Of a stretch of DNA of 64,000 nt, positions 39,131 through 63,626 are shown piece after piece; position 1 is the first letter of the stretch; every line of letters starts with the position of its first letter. The notes under the pieces are model-generated. The model was not told the origin of the DNA. It did not search any database and worked only from the letters and a program-made list of their open reading frames with translations. The position numbers and the translations under genes were made by a program. Source of the DNA: an uncultured bacterium (GTDB taxonomy: Bacteria > Omnitrophota > Omnitrophia > Omnitrophales > Abzuiibacteriaceae); NCBI GenBank assembly GCA_964387845.1, contig CAYLXA010000002.1, forward strand, positions 32,001 through 96,000, given 5' to 3'.

Positions 39131-39158
39131 TTGACACCCCTCTTTTGTCTGCTATAAT
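39131..39158 (+). promoter_or_regulatory. consensus sigma-70 promoter (TTGACA-N16-TATAAT) for accD
   Basis: Exact TTGACA at ~39131-39136 and TATAAT at ~39153-39158 in the rpoN/accD divergent spacer. GAGGA RBS follows at ~39172. Confidence 0.6.
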
Positions 39159-39180
39159 TTTCACTTTACATGAGGATATT

Positions 39181-47202: not shown

Positions 47203-48495
47203 ATGAAACTATCAATCATAGGATCGGGGCATGTGGGGTTGGTTACCGGAGCTTGTTTTGCCGAGCTTGGGCACCGTGTTATTTGTGTGGATTCTGATCC
47301 AAAAAAGATCAAATTGCTGAAACAGGGCGGTTGCCCGATTTTTGAACCCGAACTTCATGAGTTGGTCAAACGCAATGTTGCACAGGGGCGCCTGTCATTT
47401 ACGGGTGAAATTCATACGGCTGTCAAAGAAACAGAAATTCTATTCATCTGCGTCGGAACGCCGCCGCTTGAAGATGGCGGTACGGATTTATCATCTGTAG
47501 TTGCAGTCGCAAAAGCGATTGCGAAAAGCATGAAATCCTACAGGCTGATTGTGGAAAAAAGCACAGTGCCCGTTGAAACCGGCGAAGAGGTGAAGCGCAC
47601 CATTCGGCAGTATAAGGCAAAGGGCGTATCCTTTGATGTCGCATCAAACCCCGAATTTTTAAGGGAAGGAACCGCGGTACGGGATTTTTTGGAACCGGAC
47701 AGGATTGTGGTGGGGGTTGAAAGTAAGCGTGCCGAAAAAATGTTGCGCGAACTTTACCGTCAATTTCAGGCGCCGCTTATTGTTACGGATATTAAAAGCG
47801 CCGAAATCATTAAACACGCATCAAACTCATTCTTATCGATGAAAATTTCCTTTATCAATTTAATTGCCCGGCTTTGCGATAAGGTGGGCGCTAATGTCGC
47901 GGAAGTTGCTGAAGGAATGGGCTCAGATCCACGGATACGAAGAAATTTCCTGAATGCCGGAATTGGATTTGGCGGTTTTTGTTTCCCGAAGGATTTATCG
48001 GCCTTTATTCATATTGCAGAAAAAAACGGTGTTGATTTTGGGTTGCTCCGTGAAGTTTTGGAGATTAACCAAACTCAGAAAGATTATTTTGTATCGCTGG
48101 TCAAAAAAGCACTTAAAAATTTGGCCAAAAAGCGGCTGGCGGTCTTGGGGCTCTCCTTCAAACCTGACACGGATGATATGCGGTTTGCGCCTTCCTTAGA
48201 TATTATTCCAGAGCTTCAGAAATTAGGTGCTTCTATTTGCGCATACGATCCGGTCGCCATGCCCGAATCGAAAGAGATTTTCAAAGGAATTTCATTTGCC
48301 AAAACTGCCTACGAAGCGTGTGATAAGGCGGATGCGGTTTTGATCTTGACCGAATGGCGGGAATTTCAAGAGATTGATTTAAATCAAATTAAAAAGCGCT
48401 TGCGGAGCGCTGTGATGATTGACGGGCGGAATATTTATGATCCGGCGGTTATGAAGAAGAACGGCTTTAAGTATTTCGGGATCGGAAGACGCTGA
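47203..48495 (+). CDS. ugd: UDP-glucose 6-dehydrogenase
   Basis: IIGSGHVGLVTGACFAELGH N-terminus. Catalytic Cys context GFGGFCFPKD. Confidence 0.85.
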   Translation: MKLSIIGSGHVGLVTGACFAELGHRVICVDSDPKKIKLLKQGGCPIFEPELHELVKRNVAQGRLSFTGEIHTAVKETEILFICVGTPPLEDGGTDLSSVVAVAKAIAKSMKSYRLIVEKSTVPVETGEEVKRTIRQYKAKGVSFDVASNPEFLREGTAVRDFLEPDRIVVGVESKRAEKMLRELYRQFQAPLIVTDIKSAEIIKHASNSFLSMKISFINLIARLCDKVGANVAEVAEGMGSDPRIRRNFLNAGIGFGGFCFPKDLSAFIHIAEKNGVDFGLLREVLEINQTQKDYFVSLVKKALKNLAKKRLAVLGLSFKPDTDDMRFAPSLDIIPELQKLGASICAYDPVAMPESKEIFKGISFAKTAYEACDKADAVLILTEWREFQEIDLNQIKKRLRSAVMIDGRNIYDPAVMKKNGFKYFGIGRR

Positions 48496-48515
48496 TTCGT
48501 GATGAGTTGTTATTT

Positions 48516-49496
48516 ATGAAAAGACTTTTGGTGACAGGCGGATGCGGATTCATCGGCTCGAATTTTATCCGTCACGTATTGGCAAATAGACCTGATTGCT
48601 TGATCACAAATCTTGATTTACTGACTTATGCTGGAAATCTTCAGAATTTAAGCGGAATTGATCAACACCCTAACTATAAATTTATTCAGGGTGATATTGC
48701 TGATGAAGCGCTTGCCGGCATGCTTATGAAAAGCGCGGATGCCGTTGTTCATTTTGCGGCCGAAAGCCACGTGGATCGTTCGATTGCTTCGTCACACGAT
48801 TTTATTCGAACCAACGTGATCGGGACCCAGGTCTTATTGGATGCCGCAAGGGAAGCGGGCCGAATTGAAAAGTTCATTCATTTTTCGACCGATGAGGTTT
48901 ACGGTTGCGCTGAACAAGGTGCTTTTCGAGAAGATGGCCTGGTCAATCCAACCAGCCCCTACGCGGCGTCCAAGGCAAGTTCAGACTTGCTTGCGATGTC
49001 GTACTACAAGACGCACAAGCTTCCGGTGATTGTCATGCGTGCATCGAACAATTACGGGCCTTATCAGTATCCGGAAAAAGTAATTCCGCTTTTTGTGACT
49101 AATTTAATCGAGAAAAAAAAGGTTCCGCTGTATTCTCGCGGGGAGAATGTCCGGGAATGGATGTATGTTGAGGATACTTGCCGGGCTGTTTCGTTTATTT
49201 TAGACAACGGACAGGCGGGTAATATTTATAATGTCGGGTCCGGCGTCGAGATCAGCAATATCACATTGGTGAACACGATTTTAAAAGCCTTTGGACTGGA
49301 TGAGGGCTGGATTTCATATGTAAAAGACAGGCCCGCACACGACATTCGCTATAGATTGAATTCAAGTAAAATCTCTATGCTTGGGTTCCAAATTTCAAGC
49401 AAATTTGATGAAAGATTGCAATATACAATAGATTGGTACCGCCAAAATGAGGCTTGGTGGAAACCGCTTAAAAACAATCAATATACGGTGAAGTGA
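48516..49496 (+). CDS. rfbB: dTDP-glucose 4,6-dehydratase
   Basis: LVTGGCGFIGSNF motif, STDEVYG, YAASKAS (YxxxK). 326 aa. ATG 48516 is preferred over the track start 48507. Confidence 0.85.
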   Translation: MKRLLVTGGCGFIGSNFIRHVLANRPDCLITNLDLLTYAGNLQNLSGIDQHPNYKFIQGDIADEALAGMLMKSADAVVHFAAESHVDRSIASSHDFIRTNVIGTQVLLDAAREAGRIEKFIHFSTDEVYGCAEQGAFREDGLVNPTSPYAASKASSDLLAMSYYKTHKLPVIVMRASNNYGPYQYPEKVIPLFVTNLIEKKKVPLYSRGENVREWMYVEDTCRAVSFILDNGQAGNIYNVGSGVEISNITLVNTILKAFGLDEGWISYVKDRPAHDIRYRLNSSKISMLGFQISSKFDERLQYTIDWYRQNEAWWKPLKNNQYTVK

Positions 49497-49497
49497 C

Positions 49498-50394
49498 ATG
49501 TCTTTCAAAATATTGGTAACAGGCGCACGCGGGATGCTTGGAAGCGATTTGGTGGCCCTGCTCAGCAAGCACTACTCGGTTTATGGCCTCACGCGAAAAC
49601 AAGATGATCGGCCCACGTTTGCGGTTTGTGATATTACCGACCGCGCGGATACGATTAAAGCAATCGAGCGAATCAATCCGAAAGTCGTTATTCATGCAGC
49701 GGCGTGGGCGGATGTAGACGCTTGTGAAATTAACCGCGCAAAAGCAATGAAGGTTAATTTTGAGGGAACCAAAAATGTTGTGGATGGCTGCCGGCATGTA
49801 AAGGGGCTGCTTATTTACATCAGCACCGACTTCGTGTTCAGCGGCAATCAGAAAGACGCTTACAAAGAAACCAACATGACGCATCCGGTCAATGTTTACG
49901 GAGAATCGAAATTGCTTGGAGAATTTTACACACGATCTCAAAGTCTTGATTATTGGATCGTGCGAACATCGTGGCTGTTTGGTAAGAATGGCAATAATTT
50001 CATGTCGAAGATATTGGAAAAGGCAAAATCCGGCGAACGGCTCAATGTTGTTCATGACCAAAAAGGTTGCCCGACTTACACCAAAGATCTTGCTAAAGCG
50101 ATTTTACGTATGATTGACCGCCGCTTTGAATCCGAAAAACAACCCATGCTGAATGGGATTTACCACGTCTGTAATCGGGAACCCGCAACACGGTATGAAG
50201 TAGCTTTAGAAATTGTGGGCCGCAAAGGGCTCAAAGACGTCAAAGTTGATCCTGTGGGATCAGATGAAGTTAAAACCCTGGCTGCTCGGCCGAAGAATTC
50301 AACGCTCGATATGAGTAAATTTGAGAAATCGTTTGATTTTGCCATGCGGTCATGGAAAGACGCGTTGGTTGATTATATAAAGGAATTGAATTGA
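49498..50394 (+). CDS. rfbD: dTDP-4-dehydrorhamnose reductase-like
   Basis: ILVTGARGMLGSDL, YGESKLLGE (YxxxK). 298 aa. Adjacent to rfbB. Confidence 0.75.
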   Translation: MSFKILVTGARGMLGSDLVALLSKHYSVYGLTRKQDDRPTFAVCDITDRADTIKAIERINPKVVIHAAAWADVDACEINRAKAMKVNFEGTKNVVDGCRHVKGLLIYISTDFVFSGNQKDAYKETNMTHPVNVYGESKLLGEFYTRSQSLDYWIVRTSWLFGKNGNNFMSKILEKAKSGERLNVVHDQKGCPTYTKDLAKAILRMIDRRFESEKQPMLNGIYHVCNREPATRYEVALEIVGRKGLKDVKVDPVGSDEVKTLAARPKNSTLDMSKFEKSFDFAMRSWKDALVDYIKELN

Positions 50395-50395
50395 G

Positions 50396-51727
50396 ATGTC
50401 ACCGAAGCGTAAATTGCCAAACCTAGTGAAGAACTTAACAAAACGTATTCAAACCCGGCAAATTAGTGTTGCCGTGATCGGTCTTGGGTATGTCGGGTTG
50501 CCGCTTGCGGTTCACTTTGCGGAACGCAAGGTCAAAGTATTTGGTATTGATTTAGATGCAAAAAAAATTGCCGCTCTGAATAAAGGCGGTTCATATATTC
50601 AAGATGTATCTGCGGCCAAAGTTCAGCGTGCGGTGCGTCAGAATCGCTTAAAAGCCACTAGCGATTATCAAGTTCTTAAAAAGGCGGACGCAGTTATTAT
50701 TTGTGTGCCGACCCCGCTCAATCGAGCCAAAGATCCCGATTTGTCGTTTATCATCAAAGCAACCGACGAAGTTGTTAAACACCTCCACAAGGGCCAAATC
50801 ATTATCCTGGAGAGCACCACTTATCCGGGCACAACCGATGAAGTGATCTTGCCAAAGCTGGAAGCGAGCGGTCTTAAAGCAGGAAAGGACTTTTTTCTTT
50901 GTTTTTCGCCGGAGCGAATTGATCCCGGCCGTAAAGATTTGCCGATATCCCTGATTCCAAAAGTGGTCGGCGGTATCAGTAAGAACTGCACAAAACTCGG
51001 AAGCTTGCTTTACGGCGTTGTGTTTGAGAAAGTGGTGCCGGTGTCATCCGCGCGGACAGCTGAAATGGCCAAGCTGCTTGAAAACACGTTCCGCATTGTT
51101 AATATCGGCATGATCAATGAACTGGCGACGATTGCGGGCGCGCTTGGTATCGATATTTGGGAAGTGATCGAAGCTGCCAAAACGAAACCCTTCGGTTTTA
51201 TGCCGTTTTATCCCGGCCCCGGCGTTGGCGGACACTGCATCGGGATCGATCCCATATATTTATCGTGGAAAGCGAAAACGCACGGGTTTAACATCAAATT
51301 TATCGATCTGGCACGTGACGTAAATGCGCACATGCCGCATTATGTGGTTGAAAAAACTCAAGAGCTTTTACTGCGTAATACAAAAAAATCAATCAATCAA
51401 ATGAGAATTTTAATCTCCGGAATTACTTACAAGCGCGATGTTGTGGATACCAGAGAATCGCCCGCGCTTGAGGTTATTGAGGAGCTTGCTCGTCTGGGCA
51501 TTAAGGTTTCTTACCATGATCCGTTTGTTCCAAAACTTAGATACGAAAGCATTTCTTTAAAATCAGTTTCGCTTACGCCAAAAATTTTGAAAAGACAGGA
51601 CTTGGTATTGATTCTAACCGATCATTCTAAAATTGATTACAAGCTCATCGCAAAAAATTCAAAATTGGTTTTTGATACGCGCAATGTATTCAAAAATATG
51701 AAAATGGAGCATATCGTTAAAATTTGA
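50396..51727 (+). CDS. UDP-N-acetyl-D-hexosamine 6-dehydrogenase (WbpA/WbpO/WecC family)
   Basis: IGLGYVGLPLA N-terminus, catalytic GGHCIGIDP. 443 aa. Confidence 0.8.
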   Translation: MSPKRKLPNLVKNLTKRIQTRQISVAVIGLGYVGLPLAVHFAERKVKVFGIDLDAKKIAALNKGGSYIQDVSAAKVQRAVRQNRLKATSDYQVLKKADAVIICVPTPLNRAKDPDLSFIIKATDEVVKHLHKGQIIILESTTYPGTTDEVILPKLEASGLKAGKDFFLCFSPERIDPGRKDLPISLIPKVVGGISKNCTKLGSLLYGVVFEKVVPVSSARTAEMAKLLENTFRIVNIGMINELATIAGALGIDIWEVIEAAKTKPFGFMPFYPGPGVGGHCIGIDPIYLSWKAKTHGFNIKFIDLARDVNAHMPHYVVEKTQELLLRNTKKSINQMRILISGITYKRDVVDTRESPALEVIEELARLGIKVSYHDPFVPKLRYESISLKSVSLTPKILKRQDLVLILTDHSKIDYKLIAKNSKLVFDTRNVFKNMKMEHIVKI

Positions 51728-51743
51728 AAATTGGGGGAAGTGT

Positions 51744-52703
51744 ATGAAACGTTGTTTGGTAACGGGCGGTGCAGGATTTATCGGATCAAATATCGTAGAA
51801 ACTCTTGTAAAAAAGGGTTTTCGGGTCCGCGTTCTGGATAATTTCTCGACTGGCTTCAAGCAAAATCTGAAATTTCTAGAATCAAAAATAGAAATTCACA
51901 CAGGCGATATCCGAAATTTGAGGCATGCGCAGCGCGCAGCCAAGGGAATGGATTACGTGATCCATACGGCAGCGAATCGTGCAGTTTTGAGATCGGTGGA
52001 TGACCCGCTAGAGACCAATGAAGCCAATGTCAACGGAACGCTTAATATCTTAATTGCAGCGCGTGACGCCAAGGTGAAAAGAGTCGTCTATTCTTCATCG
52101 TCATCGGTTTACGGTGAAACAAATCAATTTCCGCTCAATGAAACCGCCAAGCCGAACCCGCAATCGCCCTATGCTGCACAGAAACTGATGGGTGAATATT
52201 ATTGCCGGCTGTTTTATCAATTGTACGGGCTCGAGACCGTTTCGCTCCGCTATTTTAATGTATTCGGACCCAGGCAAAATCCGGAGTCAAAATATTCAGC
52301 CGTGATTCCGATTTTCATCGACCAGCTTTTAAAAGGCGAACGTCCGGTTTTGCATTGGGATGGAAAACAATCTCGTGATTTTTCTTATGTCGATAATGTC
52401 GTGTACGGCAATTTGTGCGCGATGCATGCAGGCAAACAAGCTGCCGGGCAAGTTTATAATATTGCCTGTCATGAAGAGTACAGCGTGCTGGATATTTTTA
52501 ATGAACTGAAAAGAATTCTTCGAAAACCTTCTGTTCAGCCCATTTTCAAACCGAAGCGGGCGGGGGATGTTAGGCGGACATTTGCCGATATTCGAAAAGC
52601 AAAGCGAGAGTTAGGCTTTCGAGTTCAGACGAGATTTCGCGCAGGCCTGCAAAAAACCGTCGATTGGTTTCTCGAGAGCAAAGTTCTAGAGCGCCGCTCA
52701 TGA
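51744..52703 (+). CDS. UDP-sugar 4-epimerase (WbpP/CapD-like SDR)
   Basis: [24 protein letters not shown]. The pairing with the upstream HexNAc dehydrogenase is typical of WbpO/WbpP. Confidence 0.75.
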
Positions 52704-53635
52704 AAACCGTGGTTGTCACCGGCGGGGCCGGCTTTATCGGCTCACACCTTTCTGAACATTTTCTTCAAAACGGTTTTAAGGTCATCTGCCTTGATAATTT
52801 ATTGACCGGATCAGCTCAAAATATCAAGACTTTTAAGAATCATCCTCATTATGAATTCGTCGAGCATAATATCTGCGATTACATCGATGTGCCCGGATCT
52901 GTCGACTATGTTCTCCATTTTGCATCACCGGCAAGTCCGATTGATTATTTAAAATTACCGATTCAAACTTTAAAAGTCGGATCGCTGGGCACGCACAACG
53001 CGCTCGGCTTTGCGAAAGCAAAAAAAGCGGTTTTTTTACTGGCGTCAACCTCTGAAGTATACGGAGACCCCTTGGTCCATCCGCAGCCGGAAGATTATTG
53101 GGGGAATGTGAATCCCATCGGTCCGCGCGGAGTTTACGATGAAGCAAAGCGTTTTGCGGAAGCCATTACGCTGGCATATCATCGGTCACACGAAATGGAT
53201 GTCAAGATCGTCCGTATTTTTAATACCTATGGGCCCCGGATGCGCAAAGAAGACGGGCGGGCGATTCCGGCATTCATCAGCCAGGCGTTAAATGGTGAAG
53301 CGGTGACCGTGTTCGGCGACGGGTCCCAAACCCGCAGTTTTTGTTACATCAGCGATCTTGTTGACGGAATTGTGAAGCTTTTGCTGTCGCCTCAGCACGG
53401 CCCTATCAATATCGGAAACCCGAATGAGATGTCGCTTTTGGATTTAGCAAAGGAAATCATCCGCCTTACCAAAAGCAAAAGCGAGATCAAATTCATGAAA
53501 CTTCCGCAGGATGATCCCAAGGTGCGCCAGCCGGATATTACAAAGGCAAAGACATTGTTGAAGTGGGGGCCAAAAGTACAGCTCGAGGACGGCCTTCGAA
53601 AAACAATTGAGTATTTTAAATTGGTAGGCAAATGA
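52700..53635 (+). CDS. UDP-glucuronate decarboxylase (UDP-xylose synthase/ArnA-C-terminal-like)
   Basis: [28 protein letters not shown], and FNTYGPRM typical of the UXS family. ATG 52700 overlaps the previous stop. Confidence 0.8.
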
Positions 53636-54570
53636 CGCGAATTTTGGTAACAGGCGCATCCGGTTTCGTGGGCGGCCACATGGTTGATTTCTTAAGCCAA
53701 AAGCGGGTCGAAGTTTTCGGCACATATTTCCAGCACAAACCCGATTCTCAACCGGGAGTGTCTTATTTGGCGTGCGATTTCATGAATCGCGAGGCCGTTG
53801 TTAAGCTTTTTCAGAAAACAAAACCCACGCACGTGATTCATTTGGTGGGCCAGAGTTCGCCGTCGCTGTCTTGGAAGATTCCGTACGAAACAGTTCAGGG
53901 AAATGTTTTTTCGGCAATCCATTTGGTGGATGCGTGCCGTAGGCTTAGCTTGCAGCCTAAAATTCTTTATATTTCTTCCGCGCATGTGTATGGACAGACT
54001 TTTTATGAAAAGAGAAATGTGTCAGAAACTGATTTGCCTAAACCGATGGACCCTTACGGCGCTTCCAAGATTCAGGGTGAATATTTTGTCATGCAGTATC
54101 ATTACCAATTTAAAATTCCTTACGTCATTATGCGCGCCTCGGCGCATATCGGCGTAAATCAGCCCCCGTTCTTTTCGATTTCGAATTTTGCAAAGCAGAT
54201 TGCTGAGATCGAGAAAAGGAAAAAGCCGCCTGTTATACTGGTCGGAAATTTGAATGTTGAGCGCGGTTTTGTTGCCGTCGAAGACATTGTGAAAGCATAT
54301 TGGCTGGCACTTACAAAGGCAAAAGCGGGCGAGATCTACAATATAGGCGCCAAAGGCGTCAAAAGCATGGGTAGTTGGCTTGATGATCTGCTGAATTTAA
54401 CCGACGTCAAAATCAAAATCCAGCAGGATCCCAACCGGAAAAGACTGAAAGAACCGGCCCGCATTTCCATCAATAGTAAGAAATTTCGACAAATGACCGG
54501 ATGGAAGGAAGCGAAGCCGATTTTGGAATCATTTGAAAACATCCTCAATTGGTGGCGCGCTCGTGTCTAG
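53632..54570 (+). CDS. NAD-dependent sugar epimerase/4-ketoreductase (Rmd/GDP-6-deoxy-hexose reductase-like SDR)
   Basis: [18 protein letters not shown]. Confidence 0.65.
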
Positions 54571-55609
54571 CGTTGATTTCATCGTTGTTTCGAAAAACCA
54601 ACTCCATTTTACCCGCCAGTGCATTGAAAGCCTCTTCAAAAATGTTTCAGTGCCGTCCCATTTGATTTGGGTGGATAACGCAAGTGATGATGGTACACGG
54701 GAATATCTTGAGAAAATCAAGACGAACAAGCCGTCTCATTTTGAAGTAACGGTAATTTTGAGCGCTGAGAATCTGGGTTATGGCTTGGGGTTGAACAAAG
54801 GCCTGACGGTTTCGAAATCGCCGTATGTGTTTTTCTGCAATAACGACATCAAATTTTATCCGGATTCCGTTGAGGAAGTAGTCCGCATTGCCAAAACCAA
54901 TCCAAAATTTGGTTTAGTGAACCCAAACTCGAACGAGTTTGATCAAATTAAATCTTATGACCCGGCGATACTAAAAGCGTTGCGCGGAAGCGTGATTGAA
55001 CGAACGCATACCTCCGGATTTTGTGTTTTAGTCAGGCGGGAAGTCATTGATAAAATCGGCGGCATTGACCCTGATTTCAACCCCGCCTATTTTGAAGACA
55101 TGGACTATGCTGAACGTGCCAAAAAAGCCGGATTTTTATGCGTGGTAGCCCGCGGCGCTTTTGTTGAACATTTTGGGACTAGGACTTTTCTTCCGAAGGA
55201 AAAACAGGATTTGTGGGACAAGCATAAGGAAAGGTTTGCCAAGCGGTGGGGTGGGACCAAATGGTTTGCTGTTTACGGTGATGATGATTTGGCAAATTCG
55301 GAAACCTTAGAGCGGTTCAAAAATGCCGCGCTCAGCCTTGCGCGAAAAGAGACCGCGATTGTTCATTTGTTTGTTCCGCCTGGAACTAAACAAGGCTTAA
55401 CCGGCCTTCATGAGAGTTTTCGCATTGCAGAATCACCAAAAGTCTTGCGGGGATTTTTGATTTTGATGAAAGCGTGGCGATCAGGCTCAAAACCGATTAG
55501 CAGGATTTATGTTCCAAATACCGGAACAAAAAAAATATTTGAATCTTTAAAAGCGTTTCACCGCGCCGAAGTTTGTAATTTGGAAAACTTGCTGCAAACA
55601 GCAGTATAG
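54563..55609 (+). CDS. family-2 glycosyltransferase
   Basis: GTG 54563 overlaps the previous stop. FIVVSKN…WVDNASDDGT with DxD-type GT2 architecture. Confidence 0.7.
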   Translation: MSSVDFIVVSKNQLHFTRQCIESLFKNVSVPSHLIWVDNASDDGTREYLEKIKTNKPSHFEVTVILSAENLGYGLGLNKGLTVSKSPYVFFCNNDIKFYPDSVEEVVRIAKTNPKFGLVNPNSNEFDQIKSYDPAILKALRGSVIERTHTSGFCVLVRREVIDKIGGIDPDFNPAYFEDMDYAERAKKAGFLCVVARGAFVEHFGTRTFLPKEKQDLWDKHKERFAKRWGGTKWFAVYGDDDLANSETLERFKNAALSLARKETAIVHLFVPPGTKQGLTGLHESFRIAESPKVLRGFLILMKAWRSGSKPISRIYVPNTGTKKIFESLKAFHRAEVCNLENLLQTAV

Positions 55610-56772
55610 AGTTGATTGACAAGCCGCATGTGCGGCTCTTCCGTAAACAATTCATCCGAACGTCGCTTTCCCTCGAGACCCATTGCTTCGGCGGTGTCGG
55701 GATGGGTGAGTAGATAATCCATTTTCTCGGATAACGAATCGACGTCTTGCGTTTTGGTCAAAAAGCCGGTTTTGTTATCCAAGAGCCATTCCGGAATTCC
55801 ACCAATCGAAAAACCGATCACAGGCCGTGCCCGCGCCATGGCCTCAAGCCCTACGGTTGGAAATGAGTCGGGATAAACGGACGGCACAACCAACATAGCG
55901 CACCGGTCCAGATATTCGTTCATTTTTTCATGCGGTTGATTACCGAGAAAACGGACACGCTCTTCGATTTTTAACTCACGAGCAAGTTTCTCTAAATTTT
56001 TGCGCTCCTCGCCGTCGCCCACAATCTCAAGCGCCGTTTTTTGTTTCATTTTTTGGAAAGCACGCAAAAGATAAGAAACGCCTTTGTAAGCACGCAAGCG
56101 GCCTAGAAATAGAATAGGAGGCGCATTTTTGGGGTATGGGGCAGGCGGTTGATTGGATTTAAATGCAAAGAGCGGGATGACCGAGATTTTATCGCTTGGA
56201 ACGCCTTCGTGGGTCAAAATTTCTTGCGACCTGTGGCTAGGCACAACGGCGCGCGAAATTGAACGGAGCGCTTCCAGCGATTGCTTTTTAATTGAAATAA
56301 TTTCAAGCGAACGTTTGGGGTGCCGGCTCATGCAATTTTGATAGTAAGCAATCGGTAGGCAGCCGAAGCCGAGGCGGAACCGGCATTCTTTGCCGGATGT
56401 GTAAAGGTATTTATCGGTGCCGCCGCAGTAGGCATCGGCATTGAGCGTTGTTTTGATGGTCGGATAATTTTCGCCGCAATAGCGAATGACATACGGATTA
56501 TTAAGATCATGAATATGGATCAGGTCAGGCTTAATTGCTTGAAGCGCTTCTGAAATTGCAGCGATCGATTCTTTAGCGGTTTTGTGCTCATAAGATGATA
56601 TTTGAGGAATTGTCGTAATGGGGCATTCTGTAAACTCTTTCGGTGCATGGGCTGTGAGTAAGTGAATCTGATAGCCGTGCCTGAGCGATATTTTAATCAG
56701 GTTTTGGATGTAGATTTCACATCCACCGACCGGATCGATGCTTCTGGTGATGTGTAAAACAAGAGGAGGCAT
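55558..56772 (-). CDS. GT4-family glycosyltransferase (GT-B, retaining)
   Basis: 404 aa. C-terminal EGFG-type motif region (FPTVGLEAMA…PV) typical of GT4. Confidence 0.75.
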   Translation of the reverse strand: MPPLVLHITRSIDPVGGCEIYIQNLIKISLRHGYQIHLLTAHAPKEFTECPITTIPQISSYEHKTAKESIAAISEALQAIKPDLIHIHDLNNPYVIRYCGENYPTIKTTLNADAYCGGTDKYLYTSGKECRFRLGFGCLPIAYYQNCMSRHPKRSLEIISIKKQSLEALRSISRAVVPSHRSQEILTHEGVPSDKISVIPLFAFKSNQPPAPYPKNAPPILFLGRLRAYKGVSYLLRAFQKMKQKTALEIVGDGEERKNLEKLARELKIEERVRFLGNQPHEKMNEYLDRCAMLVVPSVYPDSFPTVGLEAMARARPVIGFSIGGIPEWLLDNKTGFLTKTQDVDSLSEKMDYLLTHPDTAEAMGLEGKRRSDELFTEEPHMRLVNQLYTAVCSKFSKLQTSAR

Positions 56773-56820
56773 AGCGCATTATAGCTGCCATGCCTTAAAG
56801 TGCAATTCATAAGGCGTTGA

Positions 56821-56848
56821 TTGACAATTTGAGGAATTGCTTTAAAAT
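56821..56848 (+). promoter_or_regulatory. sigma-70-like promoter TTGACA-N16-TAAAAT in a divergent GT4/GT4 spacer
   Basis: TTGACA at ~56821 and TAAAAT at ~56843, about 50 nt upstream of the GT4 start at 56898. Confidence 0.45.
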
Positions 56849-56897
56849 GGATGTTTCCAATTTGTAAATATCATAACCTATTGTAATACAATAACTT

Positions 56898-58028
56898 ATG
56901 AAAATAGCAACCCCGCATTGCGGTTTTTCGCCCGAGACAAATTCCGGCGGCGAAACCTACGAACGTGAAATTCTGAAAAATTTGGCCAAATTGGGCGCGG
57001 AATTTGAAGTTATTCTGGCCAAAGGAAAACGATACCCGGAAGGCTTCCCGCAGTTTCACGTTCATCATTTGCCGGTTGAAAAGGGGCTGCGCTGGTATGT
57101 TTCGAATTGGATTTGGCCTCATTATTTAAAAAGGATCGAAAAATCCTGCGGATTTGACCTGCTCCGCATTCATTCCTTGCGCTTCACGGGCCCGGGCGTG
57201 CTGTGGTTTAACCGAATGTCACAGAAGAAGTATCCCGTTGTATGTCACCATCATCACATCGATCCGGATCCGTTGAATCCGTTCATTGAAAAAAAGGTGA
57301 TTGAAAAGTCAGACCTTTTGATCACGGGCAGTGAATTTTCAAAACGCCAACTGGTAGAAACTTTCAAAACCAATCCTACAAAAATCAAAGTAGTTCCGTA
57401 CGGTATCGATGAAACATTTGCACCGCAAGAGAAAGATGAAGCATACAAAAAAGAACTCGGGCTCAAAAATGAAAAAATCCTGCTGTTTCTTGCCGGACTT
57501 AAGAAAAGAAAAAAAGTTTTTTTTCTAATCGATACATTTCAAGAATTGTTAAGGCATTACCGGGACCCTGTTAAGTTGATAATCGCAGGCTCCGGGCCTC
57601 TCAAAAAGAAACTGCAGGAATATGCACTGTCAAAAAACCTAGGCGGTAAAATTTTATTTACAGGATTTGTACCCGAAGACCGAAAGCTTACGCTTTACAA
57701 TCTTTGCGATACTTTTGTATTTCCATCCGACATGGAAGGTTTTGGCTTCAGCCCTGCAGAAGCCATGGCTTGCGGCAAACCGGTTGTATGTTCTGATGCA
57801 GGATCACTGCCTGAAATTGTAGAAGACGGACAAAGCGGTTTTTGCGTACCCAACAAAGTGCCGGCATTTGTCGAAAAAATACTCACCTTGCTCAATGACG
57901 GTGAAATGAGACGGCGTTTTGGAAGTGCCGGTGAAATGCGGGCCCGAACCATTTTTCAGTGGCCTATTGTTGCGCAACGAACTTTAGAAGCTTATCAAGC
58001 ATTGCTAGACAACCGCCGCGAGTCTTGA
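56898..58028 (+). CDS. GT4-family glycosyltransferase
   Basis: 376 aa. EGFGFSPAEAMACGKPVV motif. Confidence 0.8.
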   Translation: MKIATPHCGFSPETNSGGETYEREILKNLAKLGAEFEVILAKGKRYPEGFPQFHVHHLPVEKGLRWYVSNWIWPHYLKRIEKSCGFDLLRIHSLRFTGPGVLWFNRMSQKKYPVVCHHHHIDPDPLNPFIEKKVIEKSDLLITGSEFSKRQLVETFKTNPTKIKVVPYGIDETFAPQEKDEAYKKELGLKNEKILLFLAGLKKRKKVFFLIDTFQELLRHYRDPVKLIIAGSGPLKKKLQEYALSKNLGGKILFTGFVPEDRKLTLYNLCDTFVFPSDMEGFGFSPAEAMACGKPVVCSDAGSLPEIVEDGQSGFCVPNKVPAFVEKILTLLNDGEMRRRFGSAGEMRARTIFQWPIVAQRTLEAYQALLDNRRES

Positions 58029-58031
58029 TCA

Positions 58032-58805
58032 ATGATGAATGCGTGGTTTCAGTTTGTTTGCTGGTTTAATCAGAAGGCGAAAAGTTTGGCTATCCGATTG
58101 GTGAAATGGACCGGAAAAAGCACGCAATACATTCACCCAAAACATCTGATCAAGGACGATCATCATCATTGGTTTGTCAAATTTTTGCGTGCAGGTGACC
58201 AGGTTTTGGATTTGGGCTGCGGCGGAGGCGCTCATAGTTTTGTGGCGGCAGAGCATGTAAAAGCGGTAAAGGGAATCGATCATTCCAGCCGGAACCTTGA
58301 AATCGCGAAGCGATTGGCGTCCGAAAAAAAACTAACAAATGTGCAATTCGCAGAAGGAGATTTGGAAAAGCCGCTGGATGAGAAAGATCAAACCTACGAT
58401 GTCGTGATCGCGCTGGACATTTTAGAGCACCTGCACAACCGGGAACAATTTTTAAATGAAGCAGCTCGTGTTTTGAAACCTGCCGGCCGGCTGGTTGTTG
58501 CAATCCCAAACCGTGACACGCAGTGGAAGAAAGCTTTAAAGCGCCACGGACTTTTCTATTATTCAGACTTGGACCATAAATACGAATATGAACAGAGCGA
58601 GCTTGATGCGGTATTCAAAAGGGGCCATTTTTCGATCCGGTCGATCGAACCGGCCGTCTACGATACGCCGTGGGTTGGGTTAATCGATTTAATCGGCGGT
58701 GTGTCGATTGGCTGGTACAGAAAGTTGGCCGACTGGAAGCGCAGTATGGCACTTAAATATCCTTCGGAATCAACCGGATTTCGAATCGAGGCGGTTAAAA
58801 ATTAA
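58032..58805 (+). CDS. class-I SAM-dependent methyltransferase
   Basis: VLDLGCGGGAH motif I. Acidic motif II VVIALDILEH. Confidence 0.8.
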   Translation: MMNAWFQFVCWFNQKAKSLAIRLVKWTGKSTQYIHPKHLIKDDHHHWFVKFLRAGDQVLDLGCGGGAHSFVAAEHVKAVKGIDHSSRNLEIAKRLASEKKLTNVQFAEGDLEKPLDEKDQTYDVVIALDILEHLHNREQFLNEAARVLKPAGRLVVAIPNRDTQWKKALKRHGLFYYSDLDHKYEYEQSELDAVFKRGHFSIRSIEPAVYDTPWVGLIDLIGGVSIGWYRKLADWKRSMALKYPSESTGFRIEAVKN

Positions 58806-60112
58806 TGAAAATTGGGCTCATCAACGAATTTTTCCCTCCATTTGCACCGGGCGGCGCCGAATGGAGCATGTCGGCGCTTGCCAATGCCATGGCGGCCAAG
58901 GGGCATCAGGTGGTTGTCATGACACCGAATTACGGCGCCCAGCCATTTGAGCAATCTGGGCGGGTACGGATCTACCGGTACCCGTTCGCCAAAAAAATGA
59001 AGCAGGGCAGCCGGCTGCCGGGTTTTTTGTGGCATGCAAACCCATTTTTTTATTTGCACAGCGCTTATCAAATTTGGAAAATTGCTCAAAAAGAAAAGCT
59101 GGATTTGTTACATGTCCAGAATAAATATTCGCTGATCGGCACAAGTTGGGCGGCTCGATTTTTGAACATCCCGGTCGTGGCAACGATTCGCGATACAAGT
59201 TATATCTGCCGGATCAGCGTTTGCTTGCAGCATCATGACACAGTTCCTAATGACTGCAGTCTTAAAAAACTTTTAGCGGAATGTTCGGAAGAATATTATG
59301 AGCATTATTACGAACAAAAAAACATTTGGGTTCACGCAAAGGATAAGCTGGCTCAAACGTATCATTGGTTTGACGTTCATTGGCGCCGTTGGCATTTGAA
59401 TCGGGCCGATGCGGTGATCGGTGTTAGCAACGGAATTTTAGAAACACACGGGCGCTCCGGAATTTTTAGAAATCAAAAGAGCATTCGAAGGGCGGTTTAC
59501 AATTTGCAGGATGAGATCAAGCCTCTCGCGAACGGTTTGGGCGATCAGCTGCGCCAGAAATATGGCTTGGGCCGCAATAGAATCGTGCTTTATGTCGGCA
59601 AATTTTCAAGAGGAAAAGGAACGAGGGATTTTGTAGAATCTTTTGAGATAGTGAGCAAGCAGTGTCCGAACACGGTTTATGTCATGGCGGGGTCCGGGAT
59701 GAAAATAGCCGGCTCTGATCAAATTAAAGTTCTGAACCAGCTTCCGCATGCCGAGGTGCTGGATCTTATGGCGATTGCCGACTTAATTGTGGTGCCGAGT
59801 GTATGGCCTGAACCTTTGAGCCGCGTTCTGTTGGAAGCGCTTTATTTATCAAAACCGATTGTCGGGACGCGTGTCGGCGGTACGCCTGAGGTTGTAGCGG
59901 ACGGTGAAAACGGCTTTTTGGTTCCGAGAAGCCAGCCCGAAAAGCTTGCGGAAGCGATTTCGAGAATTCTTTCGGATGATTCACTTGCAAAAAGAATGGG
60001 CAAGCGCTCGCGTGAAATTGCGCTGACAAAATTCGAAAAATCCGCCTTAGTGAGGCAATATGAAATTGTGTATCAAGACTGCATGAATCAAACCCAGGGT
60101 GGACGATTATGA
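58805..60112 (+). CDS. GT4-family glycosyltransferase
   Basis: 435 aa. WPEPLSRVLLEALYLSKPIVGT (E-x7-E GT4 motif). Confidence 0.8.
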   Translation: MKIGLINEFFPPFAPGGAEWSMSALANAMAAKGHQVVVMTPNYGAQPFEQSGRVRIYRYPFAKKMKQGSRLPGFLWHANPFFYLHSAYQIWKIAQKEKLDLLHVQNKYSLIGTSWAARFLNIPVVATIRDTSYICRISVCLQHHDTVPNDCSLKKLLAECSEEYYEHYYEQKNIWVHAKDKLAQTYHWFDVHWRRWHLNRADAVIGVSNGILETHGRSGIFRNQKSIRRAVYNLQDEIKPLANGLGDQLRQKYGLGRNRIVLYVGKFSRGKGTRDFVESFEIVSKQCPNTVYVMAGSGMKIAGSDQIKVLNQLPHAEVLDLMAIADLIVVPSVWPEPLSRVLLEALYLSKPIVGTRVGGTPEVVADGENGFLVPRSQPEKLAEAISRILSDDSLAKRMGKRSREIALTKFEKSALVRQYEIVYQDCMNQTQGGRL

Positions 60113-60849
60113 TTGAAGGGCTGAAAGTTGTGGTGGTGCTTCCTGCTTATAATGCAGAAAAGACGCTTGAAATGACAGTGAACGAAATTCCAAATTCAAT
60201 CGTTGATGAAATCATTCTGGTTGACGATTTTAGTACAGACCGAACCACCGAAGTCGCAAAAAAGATAGGGTTAAAGCACGTTATTCGGCATGAAAAAAAT
60301 CTGGGTTACGGTGGAAACCAGAAAACCTGCTATCGCAAAGCGCTGGAGTTGGGTGCCGATATTGTGTTGATGCTTCATCCGGATTATCAATACACACCAA
60401 AATTGATTTTGCCGATGGTGTCTCTGATCGCTTCGGGACAGTTTGATGTTGTGCTTGGTTCGCGTATTTTGGGAATCGGCGCCTTGAAGGGCGGGATGCC
60501 GTTTTATAAATATGTGGCAAACCGTTTTCTGACAGCATTTGAAAATATTCTGCTTTCGCACAAATTATCGGAATATCACACGGGCTACCGCGCATTTTCC
60601 AGAAAAGTACTGGAAACAGTAAAATTTGAAAAGAATTCGAATGATTTTGTGTTTGATAACCAAATGTTAGCCCAAGTGATTTATCACGGATTCCAAATCG
60701 GTGAAATCACATGCCCGACCAAGTATTTTCCCGAAGCTTCTTCAATCAACTTTTCTAGAAGTGTTGCGTATGGCTTAGGCGTGTTAAAAACCGCGCTTGC
60801 ATTTCGCCTGCACAAAGCCGGCATTCTCCGCAGCGCACTCTTTTCCTGA
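60109..60849 (+). CDS. family-2 glycosyltransferase (Dpm1-like polyprenyl-phosphate sugar synthase type)
   Basis: VVLPAYNAEK…ILVDDFSTD motif. 246 aa. 4-nt overlap with the upstream gene. Confidence 0.75.
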   Translation: MIEGLKVVVVLPAYNAEKTLEMTVNEIPNSIVDEIILVDDFSTDRTTEVAKKIGLKHVIRHEKNLGYGGNQKTCYRKALELGADIVLMLHPDYQYTPKLILPMVSLIASGQFDVVLGSRILGIGALKGGMPFYKYVANRFLTAFENILLSHKLSEYHTGYRAFSRKVLETVKFEKNSNDFVFDNQMLAQVIYHGFQIGEITCPTKYFPEASSINFSRSVAYGLGVLKTALAFRLHKAGILRSALFS

Positions 60850-60852
60850 TAT

Positions 60853-62499
60853 ATGAAGTCAAAAACAGACAATCAAGACAAATGGTTTGGATTGGCGATT
60901 CTTATTGCTTTAGCGGTCGCTTTTTTATATCAATCCACTTATTCTTCGGCACCGACCAGCGACGCTCCTTCATGGATACGCGCTGCTAAGAACATGGACT
61001 GGCGGTTGATTTTTGTTCCAACACACTTATTGCCTCTGGGGCTTATTATGCTGGTGCAAAATTTATTTGGAATTGCATCGGTTTTGCCTGTAATCAATTT
61101 CGCAAATACCGTTCTCTCATTTTTAATTATTTTAAATGTCTATCGCTTGACTAAATTTGCCAATCTAAATCCCTTTACAAGGCTGACGGCCGCCGGCTTA
61201 TTCGGCGTATCATACGGGCTGTGGTATTTTGCAAACGGGGAATTGCACCATTTTGGAATTCTCTTCGTCATTTTAATTTTTATTAAACTCATTCAGTATC
61301 GCGAACAGCCCTCTATCCGCGGCGTAATCTTTATCGCCGTTTTGCATGTGCTGGCTGTTTTATTGCATCAAGAGCATGCCTTCATGTTGTTTCCGATCGC
61401 CTGGATGATGCTGTATGGACGTTTCAACAAAAACTCAATAAAAAATTTTACCGCCTATTTTTTGAGCGCATTGCTTTTTGGAGGATTCTCGGTTTTTTTG
61501 ATAGGCGTATTTGTCAACCGCACCATGCATCCCGCCGAACTTTTTCGATGGTTTTTTTATATCTATGACACCGGGCTGTCGAAGGAAGGCTACATGTTAT
61601 TGCGCTGGCACGACTGGTTTCTTCTGCGTGTTGTAAAAGGGATGCTGATGGCAATCAGTTACGGATCGCAAATCGTGATTGATATCCTGAGATATCCGGA
61701 CATTCGCATGATTCCGAGCGTGGTTTTCTATACGCTTTTTTCGCTAGTCGCATTTGCTGGAATAGGGTTTGGCGTATTTCGGTTTTGCGCTCATTTCGTT
61801 TCGCTTAAATCATCCGAGTCTAAAGCCGTGTTAAGTGGTTTGATCGTTTGGTTTGCTTGTTACAAATTATTTTTTAACCTGACGTATATGCCAGAATCTC
61901 CCGAATACCACATCAGCGCCAATATTCCCTTGCTTATTTTTGTGTCAATCGGCTTAGCGTCAGTTTCATCGCGATTTGCTCGAATCGGGGCGTCGGTTAC
62001 TTTGATCGGTTTAATATTTTCAGTCAACCTATGGGCTTCGATTTTGCCGTGGAGATCGCATGGTATCGAGATGGCAAAGTTTGATCGGTACGTGACCGCC
62101 CATTTCAAAGACACTGATTTCTTTGTTTCCATGGAATCTTCTTTGGATCCGGTCATTAGCCGTTACTGGAAACCTTATTCGTTGAAAGCAATGTTTATGC
62201 TGAATCCTCCCGAAAAAGTTTTTGAGGTCGTGACCGGTGAAATTGACGGCCAGCTTTCACAGGGCAAACGCGTTTTTTTATACAACCCTATTCCGAGCAC
62301 TTATGCGCTTAAGTCGATCAATTTTTATAATCCGGGCAATCGTCTCACTGAAGATTTTTTTGAAGATTTTTTTGAACGTATTAAATTGCGATATGCACTG
62401 ATCCCCATTTTTGAATACAGCGAAACGGCAAACTCTCGAGATTATTTGCTTAACACAGTCAGTAAAAAAGATAACTTTTGGGAAGTAAAGCGAAAATGA
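60853..62499 (+). CDS. polytopic membrane protein (GT-C-like glycosyltransferase or O-antigen polymerase/ligase-like)
   Basis: 548 aa with >10 predicted TM helices. Located directly after a Dpm1-like GT2 gene. Confidence 0.55.
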   Translation: MKSKTDNQDKWFGLAILIALAVAFLYQSTYSSAPTSDAPSWIRAAKNMDWRLIFVPTHLLPLGLIMLVQNLFGIASVLPVINFANTVLSFLIILNVYRLTKFANLNPFTRLTAAGLFGVSYGLWYFANGELHHFGILFVILIFIKLIQYREQPSIRGVIFIAVLHVLAVLLHQEHAFMLFPIAWMMLYGRFNKNSIKNFTAYFLSALLFGGFSVFLIGVFVNRTMHPAELFRWFFYIYDTGLSKEGYMLLRWHDWFLLRVVKGMLMAISYGSQIVIDILRYPDIRMIPSVVFYTLFSLVAFAGIGFGVFRFCAHFVSLKSSESKAVLSGLIVWFACYKLFFNLTYMPESPEYHISANIPLLIFVSIGLASVSSRFARIGASVTLIGLIFSVNLWASILPWRSHGIEMAKFDRYVTAHFKDTDFFVSMESSLDPVISRYWKPYSLKAMFMLNPPEKVFEVVTGEIDGQLSQGKRVFLYNPIPSTYALKSINFYNPGNRLTEDFFEDFFERIKLRYALIPIFEYSETANSRDYLLNTVSKKDNFWEVKRK

Positions 62500-63626
62500 T
62501 CCTCGGCATTCTTCCGTCTTTAGGAGGCAGCATTGAATCGCAAAAAAAAGATCAACGGGAAGGGCTTTTTCTCGGGTACTACATACCAAAATACCTTGAG
62601 CAATTCAAAAAAGTTCATTATTTTTCGTACGCAGATACAGAAACCAAAGCCCTGCCGAATGTTGCCATCGTAGCGAATCAGCTGAGGTGGCATCGCTATT
62701 TGTACGCCTTTTTGATGCCGCTTCTTCATCGAGATGCGATATGCGCGTGCGGCATTCTGCGTGTTATGCATCTGAACGGAACAGTTCCTGCAATTATTGC
62801 GAAATGGTTTTATCGAATTCCTTTTGTCACAACTTATGGGTACGATTATGTAAAATTTGCCAAATTAGAAGGACACTGGCTAAAGGCAAAACTCCTCAAA
62901 CTATTTATTCCATTTGCGCTGAAGTGCGCAAATGGTGTTATCGTAACAACCCCCGCACTTCAACTCGAAGTTGAAAGCTATATAGGACGCTCTGACAAGA
63001 TCCAACTGATCCCAAATGCTGTTGATATCAACAGGTTTTCTCCTGCGCATACCGGCAACCCCTCCAATCGAGAGCCATTTCGCTTTCTATTCATCGGACG
63101 TTTTGAAAGACAGAAAAACATCGATTTTCTTTTCGATGTGATTGATGAATTAAAGGAGCAAAAACCAATCATTCTCAACATGATCGGAACCGGGTCGCTG
63201 TTGGAGCAATTTAAGCAAAAGGCAAAACAGAGAAAATTACCCATTCAATTTTCCGGCAGTGTGGCATATGAGTCAATTCCGCAGCGCCACCGCGATTCTG
63301 ATTGCTATATTTCAACCTCGCTTGCGGAAGGGCACCCCAAAGCCTTGATCGAAGCTATGAGTTCCGGCCTTTTCTGTGTGGTTTCCGATTGCCCGGGTCA
63401 CAAGGATTTGATTCAGGAAGGCCGGAATGGCTTATTGCTTGGAATGGATCACGTGTCGCATTGGGTTCGAGCGCTGGTTGATCTAATAGAGGATCCTCGG
63501 AGGCGCCAGGCCTTGTCTGAACAAGCGCGCCAGTCTGTTGTTGAGAAATTTTCGATTCACAATACCCTGACTCAAGAAACACTGTTTTTAACTCGAACGC
63601 AGGCCCTGCATGGAAAAACAAGTTAA
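62496..63626 (+). CDS. GT4-family glycosyltransferase
   Basis: ATG 62496 overlaps the previous TGA. EGHPKALIEAMSSGLFCV GT4 motif. Confidence 0.75.
   Translation: MILGILPSLGGSIESQKKDQREGLFLGYYIPKYLEQFKKVHYFSYADTETKALPNVAIVANQLRWHRYLYAFLMPLLHRDAICACGILRVMHLNGTVPAIIAKWFYRIPFVTTYGYDYVKFAKLEGHWLKAKLLKLFIPFALKCANGVIVTTPALQLEVESYIGRSDKIQLIPNAVDINRFSPAHTGNPSNREPFRFLFIGRFERQKNIDFLFDVIDELKEQKPIILNMIGTGSLLEQFKQKAKQRKLPIQFSGSVAYESIPQRHRDSDCYISTSLAEGHPKALIEAMSSGLFCVVSDCPGHKDLIQEGRNGLLLGMDHVSHWVRALVDLIEDPRRRQALSEQARQSVVEKFSIHNTLTQETLFLTRTQALHGKTS

Follow-up and report, generated by a model that had tools for sequence, protein, structure and literature searches.

Does a polysaccharide gene cluster that seems to lack several of its genes encode an unusual pathway, or has it merely been cut by the window through which it is viewed? 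This question is raised by DNA from an uncultured bacterium of the Omnitrophota (contig CAYLXA010000002.1), of which a stretch of 64,000 nucleotides, hereafter the window, was analysed. Positions 47203-63626 of the window carry nucleotide-sugar genes, among them rmlB and rmlD, followed by glycosyltransferase genes. A first examination of the letters alone (the sequence-only reading) had pointed out that rmlA, rmlC, Wzx, Wzz and an ABC exporter are missing from the window. It proposed that the dTDP sugar is made without a 3,5-epimerase, and that the flippase, the chain-length regulator and the initiating transferase lie outside the window or are non-canonical. The explanation favoured here, to which I give a probability of roughly 0.7, is that the flagged 47203-63626 stretch is the 5' third of one surface-glycan locus of at least 44 kb (47.2 kb to window-equivalent 91.5 kb or further), nearly all of it on one strand. 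Positions are window coordinates, and "window-equivalent" extends the same numbering beyond either edge.

The gene content of the flagged stretch was established from a six-frame list of open reading frames (ORFs) together with Pfam and NCBIfam models, and in the remaining 47 kb of the window all ORFs of at least 150 amino acids (aa) were scanned against Pfam. The window ends inside a gene. A plus-strand ORF starts at 63610, so that it overlaps the last GT4 gene (62478-63626) at its stop codon, and continues past the window end; its portion at 63610-64000 is the 5' part of a gene for a membrane-anchored SGNH/GDSL hydrolase, the full 459-aa product of which (PF13472) is encoded on an identical contig, L001. 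The window therefore cuts the cluster, and 63626 is not the cluster end. Two Logan contigs extend the sequence: SRR15237813_90042 (72,872 bp) is identical to the window across the shared 13,148 nt, and a second one, _292880, agrees letter for letter over 5,030 nt at the start of the window. Merging them with the window yields an unbroken 98,858 bp that begins 7.3 kb before the window and reaches window-equivalent 91557. The gene for the 548-aa polytopic protein described below (60853-62499) is present both on SRR15237813_90042 and on an NCBI contig of 275,583 bp. Downstream of the window the Logan contig holds at least 27.5 kb more genes, all on the plus strand and separated by short gaps or overlapping. 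Promoter and terminator scans performed at chance level and give no operon boundaries.

Three of the downstream genes bear directly on the functions reported as missing. The first encodes a 599-aa ABC half-transporter (window-equivalent 75748-77547, 11.7 kb past the window edge) with fused transmembrane and nucleotide-binding domains, which can be aligned with MsbA from end to end (3e-75); its NCBIfam scores are 345 bits for HepA, 331 for MsbA and 244 for PglK (PglK cut-off 1000), all under the cut-offs. The second, at window-equivalent 88396-89616 (24.4 kb past the edge), encodes a Wzy_C protein (PF04932, 74 bits vs 31.7), a family match that fits a ligase or a polymerase alike. The third, at window-equivalent 89573-91024 (25.6 kb past the edge), encodes a WcaJ/WbaP-type initiating phosphotransferase composed of CoA_binding_3 and Bac_transf domains, which passes WcaJ_sugtrans (TIGR03023, 443 bits vs 411) as well as EPS_sugtrans. 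The WcaJ-type enzyme, an undecaprenyl-phosphate hexose-1-phosphate transferase, would start the chain, the MsbA/HepA/PglK-type half-transporter would act as exporter or flippase for the lipid-linked glycan, and the Wzy_C protein would serve as ligase or polymerase. The expectation that such genes lie outside the window is thus borne out for the initiating transferase, with a Wzy_C protein and a candidate exporter besides. Inside the window, the reported absences hold. Pfam scans revealed no rmlA, rmlC, Wzx, Wzz or ABC exporter there, and tblastn with the E. coli K-12 RfbA, RfbC and RfbX (Wzx) sequences gave no match. The sole ABC ATPase of the window (40037-41155) was rejected as an exporter, being of the UgpC/MalK importer type (492 bits vs 432) with MalK OB/TOBE domains. 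For scans based on windows of fixed size, this locus is a caution that a seemingly incomplete polysaccharide cluster may merely have been cut by the window edge.

Block A of the flagged stretch (47.2-54.6 kb), read entirely from the plus strand, would supply the sugar precursors. Ugd, a UDP-glucose 6-dehydrogenase (47203-48495), has all three UDPG_MGDP_dh domains; its best NCBIfam match is TuaD (536 bits, under the equivalog cut-off) and the NDP-sugar dehydrogenase subfamily model is passed. UXS, a UDP-glucuronate decarboxylase (52664-53635; the public gene call begins at 52700), matches human UXS1 (2b69/4gll) full length, over residues 14-319, at 4e-103. Ugd would produce UDP-GlcA, which UXS would convert to UDP-Xyl. 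Between them lie genes for a WecC/TviB/WbpO-like nucleotide-sugar 6-dehydrogenase of the kind that oxidizes a UDP-HexNAc to the uronic acid (50396-51727; TIGR03026 passed, UDP-ManNAc dehydrogenase model 273 bits and TviB 238 bits, both under cut-off) and for a TviC/WbpP-like UDP-HexNAc(A) 4-epimerase (51744-52703; Pfam Epimerase, best NCBIfam TviC at 238 bits, under cut-off), a pair predicted to yield a UDP-HexNAc uronic acid. RmlB, the dTDP-glucose 4,6-dehydratase (48507-49496), scores 410 bits against a TIGR01181 cut-off of 365, and its best match in the PDB is DesIV (1r66, 5e-101). RmlD, the dTDP-4-dehydrorhamnose reductase (49498-50394), scores 273 bits vs 224 with TIGR01214. dTDP-4-dehydrorhamnose reductases take all the top places among its PDB matches (3sc6 at 1e-46, 1vl0, 8g22, 4wpg), and tblastn with E. 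coli RfbD finds it at 49504-50388 (1e-36); at 31% identity to RfbD, it keeps the catalytic Thr, Tyr and Lys in the motif STD...YGESK. Enzymes for UDP-GlcA, UDP-Xyl, a UDP-HexNAc uronate and a dTDP-6-deoxyhexose, as listed in the sequence-only reading, are therefore all present by Pfam, NCBIfam or PDB matches. That list was complete except for one gene: a short-chain dehydrogenase/reductase (SDR) at 53632-54570, which had not been itemised, aligns full length with Rmd-like NDP-4-keto-6-deoxyhexose 4-reductases (best PDB matches the GDP-6-deoxy-D-lyxo-4-hexulose reductase 2pk3, 1.5e-55, and the Rmd 6x3b, 5e-37). This Rmd-like reductase could make a D-configured 6-deoxyhexose, its preference for GDP or dTDP not being readable from sequence.

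Block B (54.5-63.6 kb) holds the transferases, and here the four GT4, two GT2, methyltransferase and single polytopic membrane protein that had been reported were all found. It begins with a GT2 (54533-55609, plus strand; PF00535, 2.4e-19; gene call from 54563), followed by a GT4 (55558-56772; PF00534 and PF13439) that is the sole minus-strand gene of the flagged stretch. The remaining genes are on the plus strand: a GT4 (56898-58028; PF00534, 2.9e-45) whose best PDB matches are BshA/MshA-type retaining GT4 enzymes (2e-20), a class I S-adenosylmethionine-dependent methyltransferase (58032-58805; Methyltransf_31/11/25; gene call from 58086), a GT4 (58805-60112; PF00534 and PF13439), a 246-aa Dpm1/ArnC/PpgS-like GT2 (60109-60849; PF00535), the 548-aa polytopic protein (60853-62499) and the last GT4 (62478-63626; PF00534; gene call from 62496). 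All GT4 matches in block B are generic, far under equivalog cut-offs. Working in the cytoplasm, the GT4 and GT2 enzymes would, together with the methyltransferase, assemble the glycan on a lipid carrier.

The identity of the polytopic protein had been left open. Its sequence has no match in Pfam, NCBIfam or the PDB, and a word-indexed protein search gave only three relatives; an exhaustive HMMER search of 1.84 billion cluster representatives gave 70 relatives at E <=0.001. Some 10-12 segments of the protein are hydrophobic, and a soluble domain of 150 aa forms its C-terminus. In an alignment of 19 homologues, a PTSD motif right after the first helix is nearly invariant, and a WYFANGE motif and further acidic residues are also conserved. 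Within the PTSD(G) motif, D37, just past the first transmembrane helix, is at least 90% conserved over the 19 homologues and invariant in the closer six; GT-C enzymes are marked by a conserved acidic residue of their first extracytoplasmic loop, and D37 is, as judged from sequence, the putative counterpart of the catalytic Asp of solved enzymes. The AlphaFold2 model computed from the same alignment (pLDDT 88.9, pTM 0.88) has the GT-C membrane fold, and on this model the protein is a GT-C glycosyltransferase. A role as Wzx or Wzy, that is, as flippase or polymerase, is ruled out on fold. The polytopic protein reported earlier is thus real, but it is not a flippase or polymerase candidate. It founds a rare GT-C family that has neither a Pfam nor an NCBIfam model, has a confident structure model and lies within a conserved block of several uncultured bacteria; this novelty is better supported than a pathway dispensing with rmlA and rmlC, and less striking.

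The gene immediately upstream suggests a donor for this enzyme. The best NCBIfam matches of the GT2 at 60109-60849 are AglJ, PpgS and dolichyl-phosphate hexose transferase, all under cut-off, and its best PDB match is the Pyrococcus furiosus Dol-P-Man synthase 5mlz (8e-14), with a weak match to ArnC. It is probably a polyprenyl-phosphate-sugar synthase. By its family and by its adjacency, which is kept in relatives and is the sole indication of the donor, the GT2/GT-C pair resembles ArnC/ArnT, GtrB/GtrC and the mycobacterial PpgS/Rv3779, in which a Dpm1-like GT2 likewise lies directly upstream of a GT-C. By the logic of ArnC/ArnT or GtrB/GtrC, the GT2 would charge polyprenyl phosphate with a sugar, which the neighbouring GT-C would then transfer at the periplasmic face. 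The resemblance has limits: the GT-C of the window is only 8-12% identical to any solved GT-C, the GT2 has no evident membrane anchor, and no GtrA-like flippase gene is adjacent in the window.

Most of block B recurs in other metagenomes. A metagenome scan with a 6-sequence alignment of the GT-C gave six more loci, and all window proteins were compared with these by tblastn; seeded searches of GTDB species representatives with RmlD and with a 650-aa protein encoded downstream gave no relative. The order GT4 (minus strand), GT4, methyltransferase, GT4, Dpm1-like GT2, GT-C, GT4 is syntenic in three contigs (L008, L009 and L010) and partly so in L003 and L013. The conserved block opens with the minus-strand GT4 (55558-56772), which has syntenic counterparts of 50-53% identity in L008 and L009; for the next GT4 (56898-58028), identity in these two contigs is 65-66%. 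In L008-L010 the methyltransferase and the GT4 at 58805-60112 are syntenic, at 55-58% and 52-55% identity, respectively. With L003 included, the Dpm1-like GT2 is 75-85% identical and the last GT4 50-54%. On a JGI contig the GT2, the GT-C and the next GT4 occur in the same order, 85%, 35% and 54% identical to the window proteins. Taken together, five to six independent metagenome contigs show synteny for the GT2/GT-C/GT4 neighbourhood and for the block. The GT-C stands apart: it shares only 27-35% identity with its counterparts (L008 5989-7644, L009 5956-7593, L010 2863-4482, L003 623-2275), compared with 50-85% for the other block proteins (GT4s 50-66%, Dpm1-like GT2 75-85%). A fast-diverging GT-C beside a conserved GT2 suggests, from these sequences, a conserved donor combined with a rapidly changing acceptor, or diversifying selection. 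Two differences in gene content were seen between the contigs. A gene of the polysaccharide-deacetylase/DUF2334 family lies between the second GT4 and the methyltransferase in L008 (2361-3164) and L009 (2326-3138); the window organism does not have it, the genes that end at 58028 and start at 58032 being adjacent. L009 and L010 carry an insertion of about 3 kb between the GT-C and the last GT4, which in L009 consists of methyltransferases and a methyltransferase-GT2 fusion.

What, then, would the whole locus make? An LptD-like gene upstream of ugd is separated from it by 88 nt, and HldD, an ADP-heptose 6-epimerase, is encoded at 36529-37488 (309 bits vs 275). Because of these two genes and of the Wzy_C family protein, lipopolysaccharide (LPS) is favoured as the destination, and the O-antigen or outer core is most likely the product. 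A familiar arrangement close to this one is that of the enterobacterial rfb clusters, such as the E. coli K-12 order rfbB-rfbD-rfbA-rfbC-wzx-glf-wzy followed by glycosyltransferases: in both, rmlD comes directly after rmlB, nucleotide-sugar genes precede glycosyltransferases, and the string includes a Wzy_C-family protein as well as an initiating polyprenyl-phosphate sugar-phosphate transferase. By contrast, the present locus has no rmlA, rmlC, wzx or wzz in 98.9 kb, is several times larger (at least 44 kb), and contains, besides GT-C enzymes, a module for nonulosonic acid and a fused ABC half-transporter. For export, the LPS O-antigen pathway of Helicobacter pylori (WecA, cytoplasmic glycosyltransferases, the ABC flippase Wzk, WaaL) and the Campylobacter PglK offer a better likeness, as the present locus has genes for an MsbA/PglK-type half-transporter and a Wzy_C (WaaL-family) protein and none was found for Wzx or Wzz. 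The H. pylori Wzk/WaaL route is therefore taken as a working analogy, from which the locus departs in that its ABC protein scores under the PglK, MsbA and HepA cut-offs and in that its initiator is of the WcaJ/WbaP type, not WecA. The finding is largely an ordinary one, namely a very large surface-glycan locus, probably for LPS, in an uncultured diderm lineage. It exemplifies a very large LPS-type cluster that seemingly uses an MsbA/PglK-type half-transporter and a Wzy_C protein, not Wzx and Wzz, and neither this nor the GT-C family would surprise a specialist in bacterial glycobiology.

Several points weigh against a single large locus of this kind. Its 3' end lies beyond the sequence analysed, which stops at window-equivalent 91557, and a same-strand arrangement is no proof of a single pathway. 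The ABC protein falls under every equivalog cut-off, so that its role as flippase is conjecture. The expectation of a flippase and a chain-length regulator outside the window was not borne out for Wzx and Wzz: the called genes in 98.9 kb carry no Polysacc_synt/MOP Pfam domain, and tblastn with E. coli Wzx was negative (a weak test, since Wzx diverges strongly); Pfam scans across the same sequence gave no PF02706 (Wzz). A separate Wzm permease and Wzt ATPase were not found either, the only exporter-type ABC protein being the fused MsbA/ABCB-type half-transporter. Furthermore, that rmlA and rmlC, not located in the 98.9 kb, lie elsewhere in the genome is an assumption. Finally, in L008 block B is directly followed by a Na+/H+ exchanger gene instead of glycan genes, and block B may be self-contained, unrelated to the distant genes for the initiating phosphotransferase and the Wzy_C protein. 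Developed fully, this last point amounts to an autonomous glycolipid pathway encoded by block B (55.5-63.6 kb), with a logic like that of phosphatidylinositol mannosides or glycosylphosphatidylinositol anchors: the GT4s would glycosylate a membrane lipid directly at the cytoplasmic face and the GT-C would finish the molecule outside with a polyprenyl-phosphate sugar, no undecaprenyl-phosphate initiator, Wzx or Wzy of its own being involved. The conserved synteny at 50-85% identity agrees with such a pathway, the deacetylase-family gene of L008 and L009 recalls the order PIG-A/PIG-L/PIG-M, and the GT4s are nearest, if weakly, to BshA/MshA-type and lipid-glycosylating enzymes. Those GT4 matches are generic, however, the deacetylase is absent from the window organism, the block is flanked on the same strand by nucleotide-sugar genes and further glycan genes, and in L008 only one flank can be seen. 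The autonomous pathway as a whole is, in my judgement, rather unlikely. The 55.5-63.6 kb segment is better viewed as a portable, conserved seven-gene module that is part of the large locus, a reading preferred over a self-contained pathway.

The destination of the glycan is likewise open to another interpretation, in which the genes act in general O-glycosylation of proteins or make a polysaccharide that is secreted or forms a capsule, and the Wzy_C protein is a PglL-type O-oligosaccharyltransferase or a Wzy. The Wzy_C family spans WaaL, PglL-type O-oligosaccharyltransferases and some Wzy proteins, which a family match cannot separate; acetamidino-bearing nonulosonic acids, the type of sugar suggested by the downstream genes, are common on glycoproteins; and HepA, the best match of the ABC protein, is an exporter of envelope polysaccharide. 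On the other side, the LptD-like neighbour and nearby HldD favour LPS, no Wza/Wzc (OPX/PCP) capsule-export genes were seen in 98.9 kb, and there is no evident target glycoprotein. A destination other than LPS is accordingly held to be doubtful. Much the same kind of weighing applies to the proposal from which the question started, that RmlB and an RmlD-like reductase make a dTDP-6-deoxyhexose (D-fucose, D-quinovose or 6-deoxytalose) without 3,5-epimerisation, rmlC being dispensable. In its favour, rmlB adjoins rmlD without A or C, and no RmlC homologue was detected: no ORF in the 98,858 bp matches PF00908, and the best tblastn hit of E. coli RfbC has an E value of 1.6. Over the same sequence E. 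coli RfbA matches only the CBS-nucleotidyltransferase, with 24% identity. This protein (window-equivalent 84.7 kb) was rejected as RmlA on its model scores (48 vs 361 and 86 vs 320 bits), and so was the nucleotidyltransferase at 7513-8238, which scores as HddC/ManC-like. A conventional O-antigen cluster with rmlA and rmlC immediately downstream, the outcome that would have spoken against the proposal from the start, was not encountered either, as neither gene was found in the 27.5 kb downstream or the 7.3 kb upstream of the window.

The absence of rmlC loses its force, however, once the pathway is considered as a whole. The substrate of RmlD is the product of RmlC, and RmlB requires dTDP-glucose, which is made by RmlA. 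Since rmlA is just as absent while RmlB needs dTDP-glucose, absence from the locus is uninformative on the pathway. A canonical RmlB depends on RmlA, so that one gene or more of the pathway must have its place outside the cluster, which applies to rmlC too; the genes lacking here are most simply taken to be encoded elsewhere. Scattered rml genes are familiar: in Mycobacterium tuberculosis rmlA, rmlB/rmlC and rmlD are at separate loci. The reductase itself speaks for the canonical route, as it passes the RmlD equivalog model, has only RmlD enzymes as its nearest solved relatives and keeps the catalytic motif. Synthesis of dTDP-6-deoxy-L-talose also requires RmlC, and the known dTDP-D-fucose reductases (Fcd/Fcf1) are not known to belong to the RmlD family. 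Moreover, the Rmd-like SDR at 53632-54570 is a better candidate than RmlD for an epimerase-independent 6-deoxy sugar and is indeed the only real one here; its product would be a D-configured 6-deoxyhexose. The sequences thus lend no support to an epimerase-free dTDP sugar made by RmlD, which I regard as very improbable. The preferred alternative is that RmlB and RmlD would catalyse steps 2 and 4 of dTDP-L-rhamnose synthesis, with RmlA and RmlC (steps 1 and 3) probably encoded elsewhere in the genome. Even less credence is given to a genome truly without rmlA and rmlC, in which RmlB and RmlD, perhaps with the Rmd-like reductase, make a 6-deoxyhexose non-canonically. One possible form of such a route, by analogy with the plant and viral NRS/ER-type enzymes, would be an RmlD-family protein acting as a bifunctional 3,5-epimerase/4-reductase on UDP- or dTDP-4-keto-6-deoxyglucose; in that case a promiscuous nucleotidyltransferase would supply the nucleotide-glucose. 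More generally, partial sets of rml genes are no evidence for an unusual sugar.

The other genes beyond the window, tightly packed on the plus strand up to window-equivalent 91557, are given here in order. The two membrane-anchored SGNH/GDSL hydrolase genes come first, from 63610. The second of these appears split into an ORF of 346-368 aa and one of 75-78 aa (L001 14058-15164 and 15184-15420, window-equivalent about 64910-66272); the short ORF resembles the C-terminal end of the SGNH fold, and a frameshift, a pseudogene or an assembly error is possible. There follow a 530-aa PMT_2-type GT-C, a methyltransferase, the 650-aa protein, which weakly matches models for capsule synthesis and surface carbohydrates, a NeuA/PseF-like cytidylyltransferase (under the PseF cut-off), HisF-like and HisH-like proteins, a TylF methyltransferase, a 2-oxoglutarate (2OG)-Fe(II) oxygenase and the N-acetyl-sugar amidotransferase WbuX (347 bits vs 203). 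After the ABC gene come a GT4, a methyltransferase, LegB (522 bits vs 475), a LegC-family aminotransferase (named from homologues), a fused NeuC-NeuB of which both halves pass their models, a NeuD/PglD acetyltransferase (NeuD model passed), the CBS-nucleotidyltransferase, a GT2 and a double GT4. The Wzy_C and initiating phosphotransferase genes are next, and a further GT2 runs off the 98,858-bp sequence. The hydrolases, the second GT-C, the methyltransferases and the additional glycosyltransferases would be parts of the same locus as block B. The Leg and Neu genes, with WbuX and the HisH/HisF-like acetamidino genes, would constitute a module of the CMP-legionaminic-acid type. The known counterpart is the Campylobacter/Legionella legionaminic-acid pathway with WbuX/WbuY/WbuZ-type acetamidino formation, with which the locus shares LegB, LegC, a NeuD/PglD-type acetyltransferase, the fused NeuC-NeuB, a CMP-sugar synthetase-like gene, the CBS-nucleotidyltransferase, WbuX and the HisH/HisF paralogues, all on the same strand. 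It differs in that the module lies beyond the window, the cytidylyltransferase is under the PseF cut-off and the product is putative.

Glycan genes are also found on the other side of the window. On the minus strand of contig L007 (1714-6269, window-equivalent -5587 to -1032) lie genes for a polysaccharide pyruvyl transferase, an FrhB/FdhB-like protein, a 2OG-Fe(II) oxygenase, a GT2 and a 133-aa membrane protein with two predicted transmembrane-like segments and no Pfam match; the glycan region therefore extends past the window at both ends. Across the roughly 99 kb, seven large polytopic proteins each combine an N-terminal transmembrane bundle with a C-terminal soluble domain (window 11965-14019, 14035-15963, 23872-25812 on the minus strand and 60853-62499; L001 15440-17032; L007 41-1705 and 6266-7714, both on the minus strand). 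Three have weak PMT_2/PMT matches, one is a GT-C by fold and three have no Pfam match; the density of putative GT-C proteins is unusually high.

A separate glycan cluster at the start of the window (691-11968) has an unusual enzyme set: thiamine pyrophosphate-dependent E1 alpha and beta subunits (2356-4376), a DegT aminotransferase, two GDP-L-fucose-synthase-like SDRs, an HddA-like GHMP kinase, the HddC/ManC-like guanylyltransferase, a B12-binding radical SAM enzyme (8244-9794) and a flavoprotein resembling L-2-hydroxyglutarate oxidase (9791-10978; NF008726 passed). This set suggests that the product of the cluster is an extensively modified heptose or hexose, with C-methylation or branching a possibility. 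The gene at 17777-21001, which has glycosyltransferase genes around it, encodes 1074 aa with a domain like that of spermine/spermidine synthases and, at the C-terminus, TPR repeats. The region separating the two glycan clusters contains polyamine genes (25802-28415 on the minus strand, and 35411-36532); they encode a saccharopine-dehydrogenase-type protein resembling carboxy(nor)spermidine dehydrogenase, an Orn/DAP/Arg decarboxylase-fold protein and a deoxyhypusine-synthase-like protein (PF01916, 1e-87). A tRNA-Thr(CGT) gene (37488-37562) abuts the end of the HldD ORF, the last base of the stop codon being the first base of the tRNA as called, and lies just before the convergent rpoN (37565-39013, minus strand). 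The UgpC/MalK-type ATPase gene comes after accD (39145-40092) and is an orphan, no permease or binding-protein gene being nearby. At 41208-44095, just upstream of the FSA/transaldolase-lptD-ugd string, two genes for GGDEF diguanylate cyclases stand side by side, one of them encoding a GAF domain as well; speculatively, they could link cyclic di-GMP signalling to surface glycan production.

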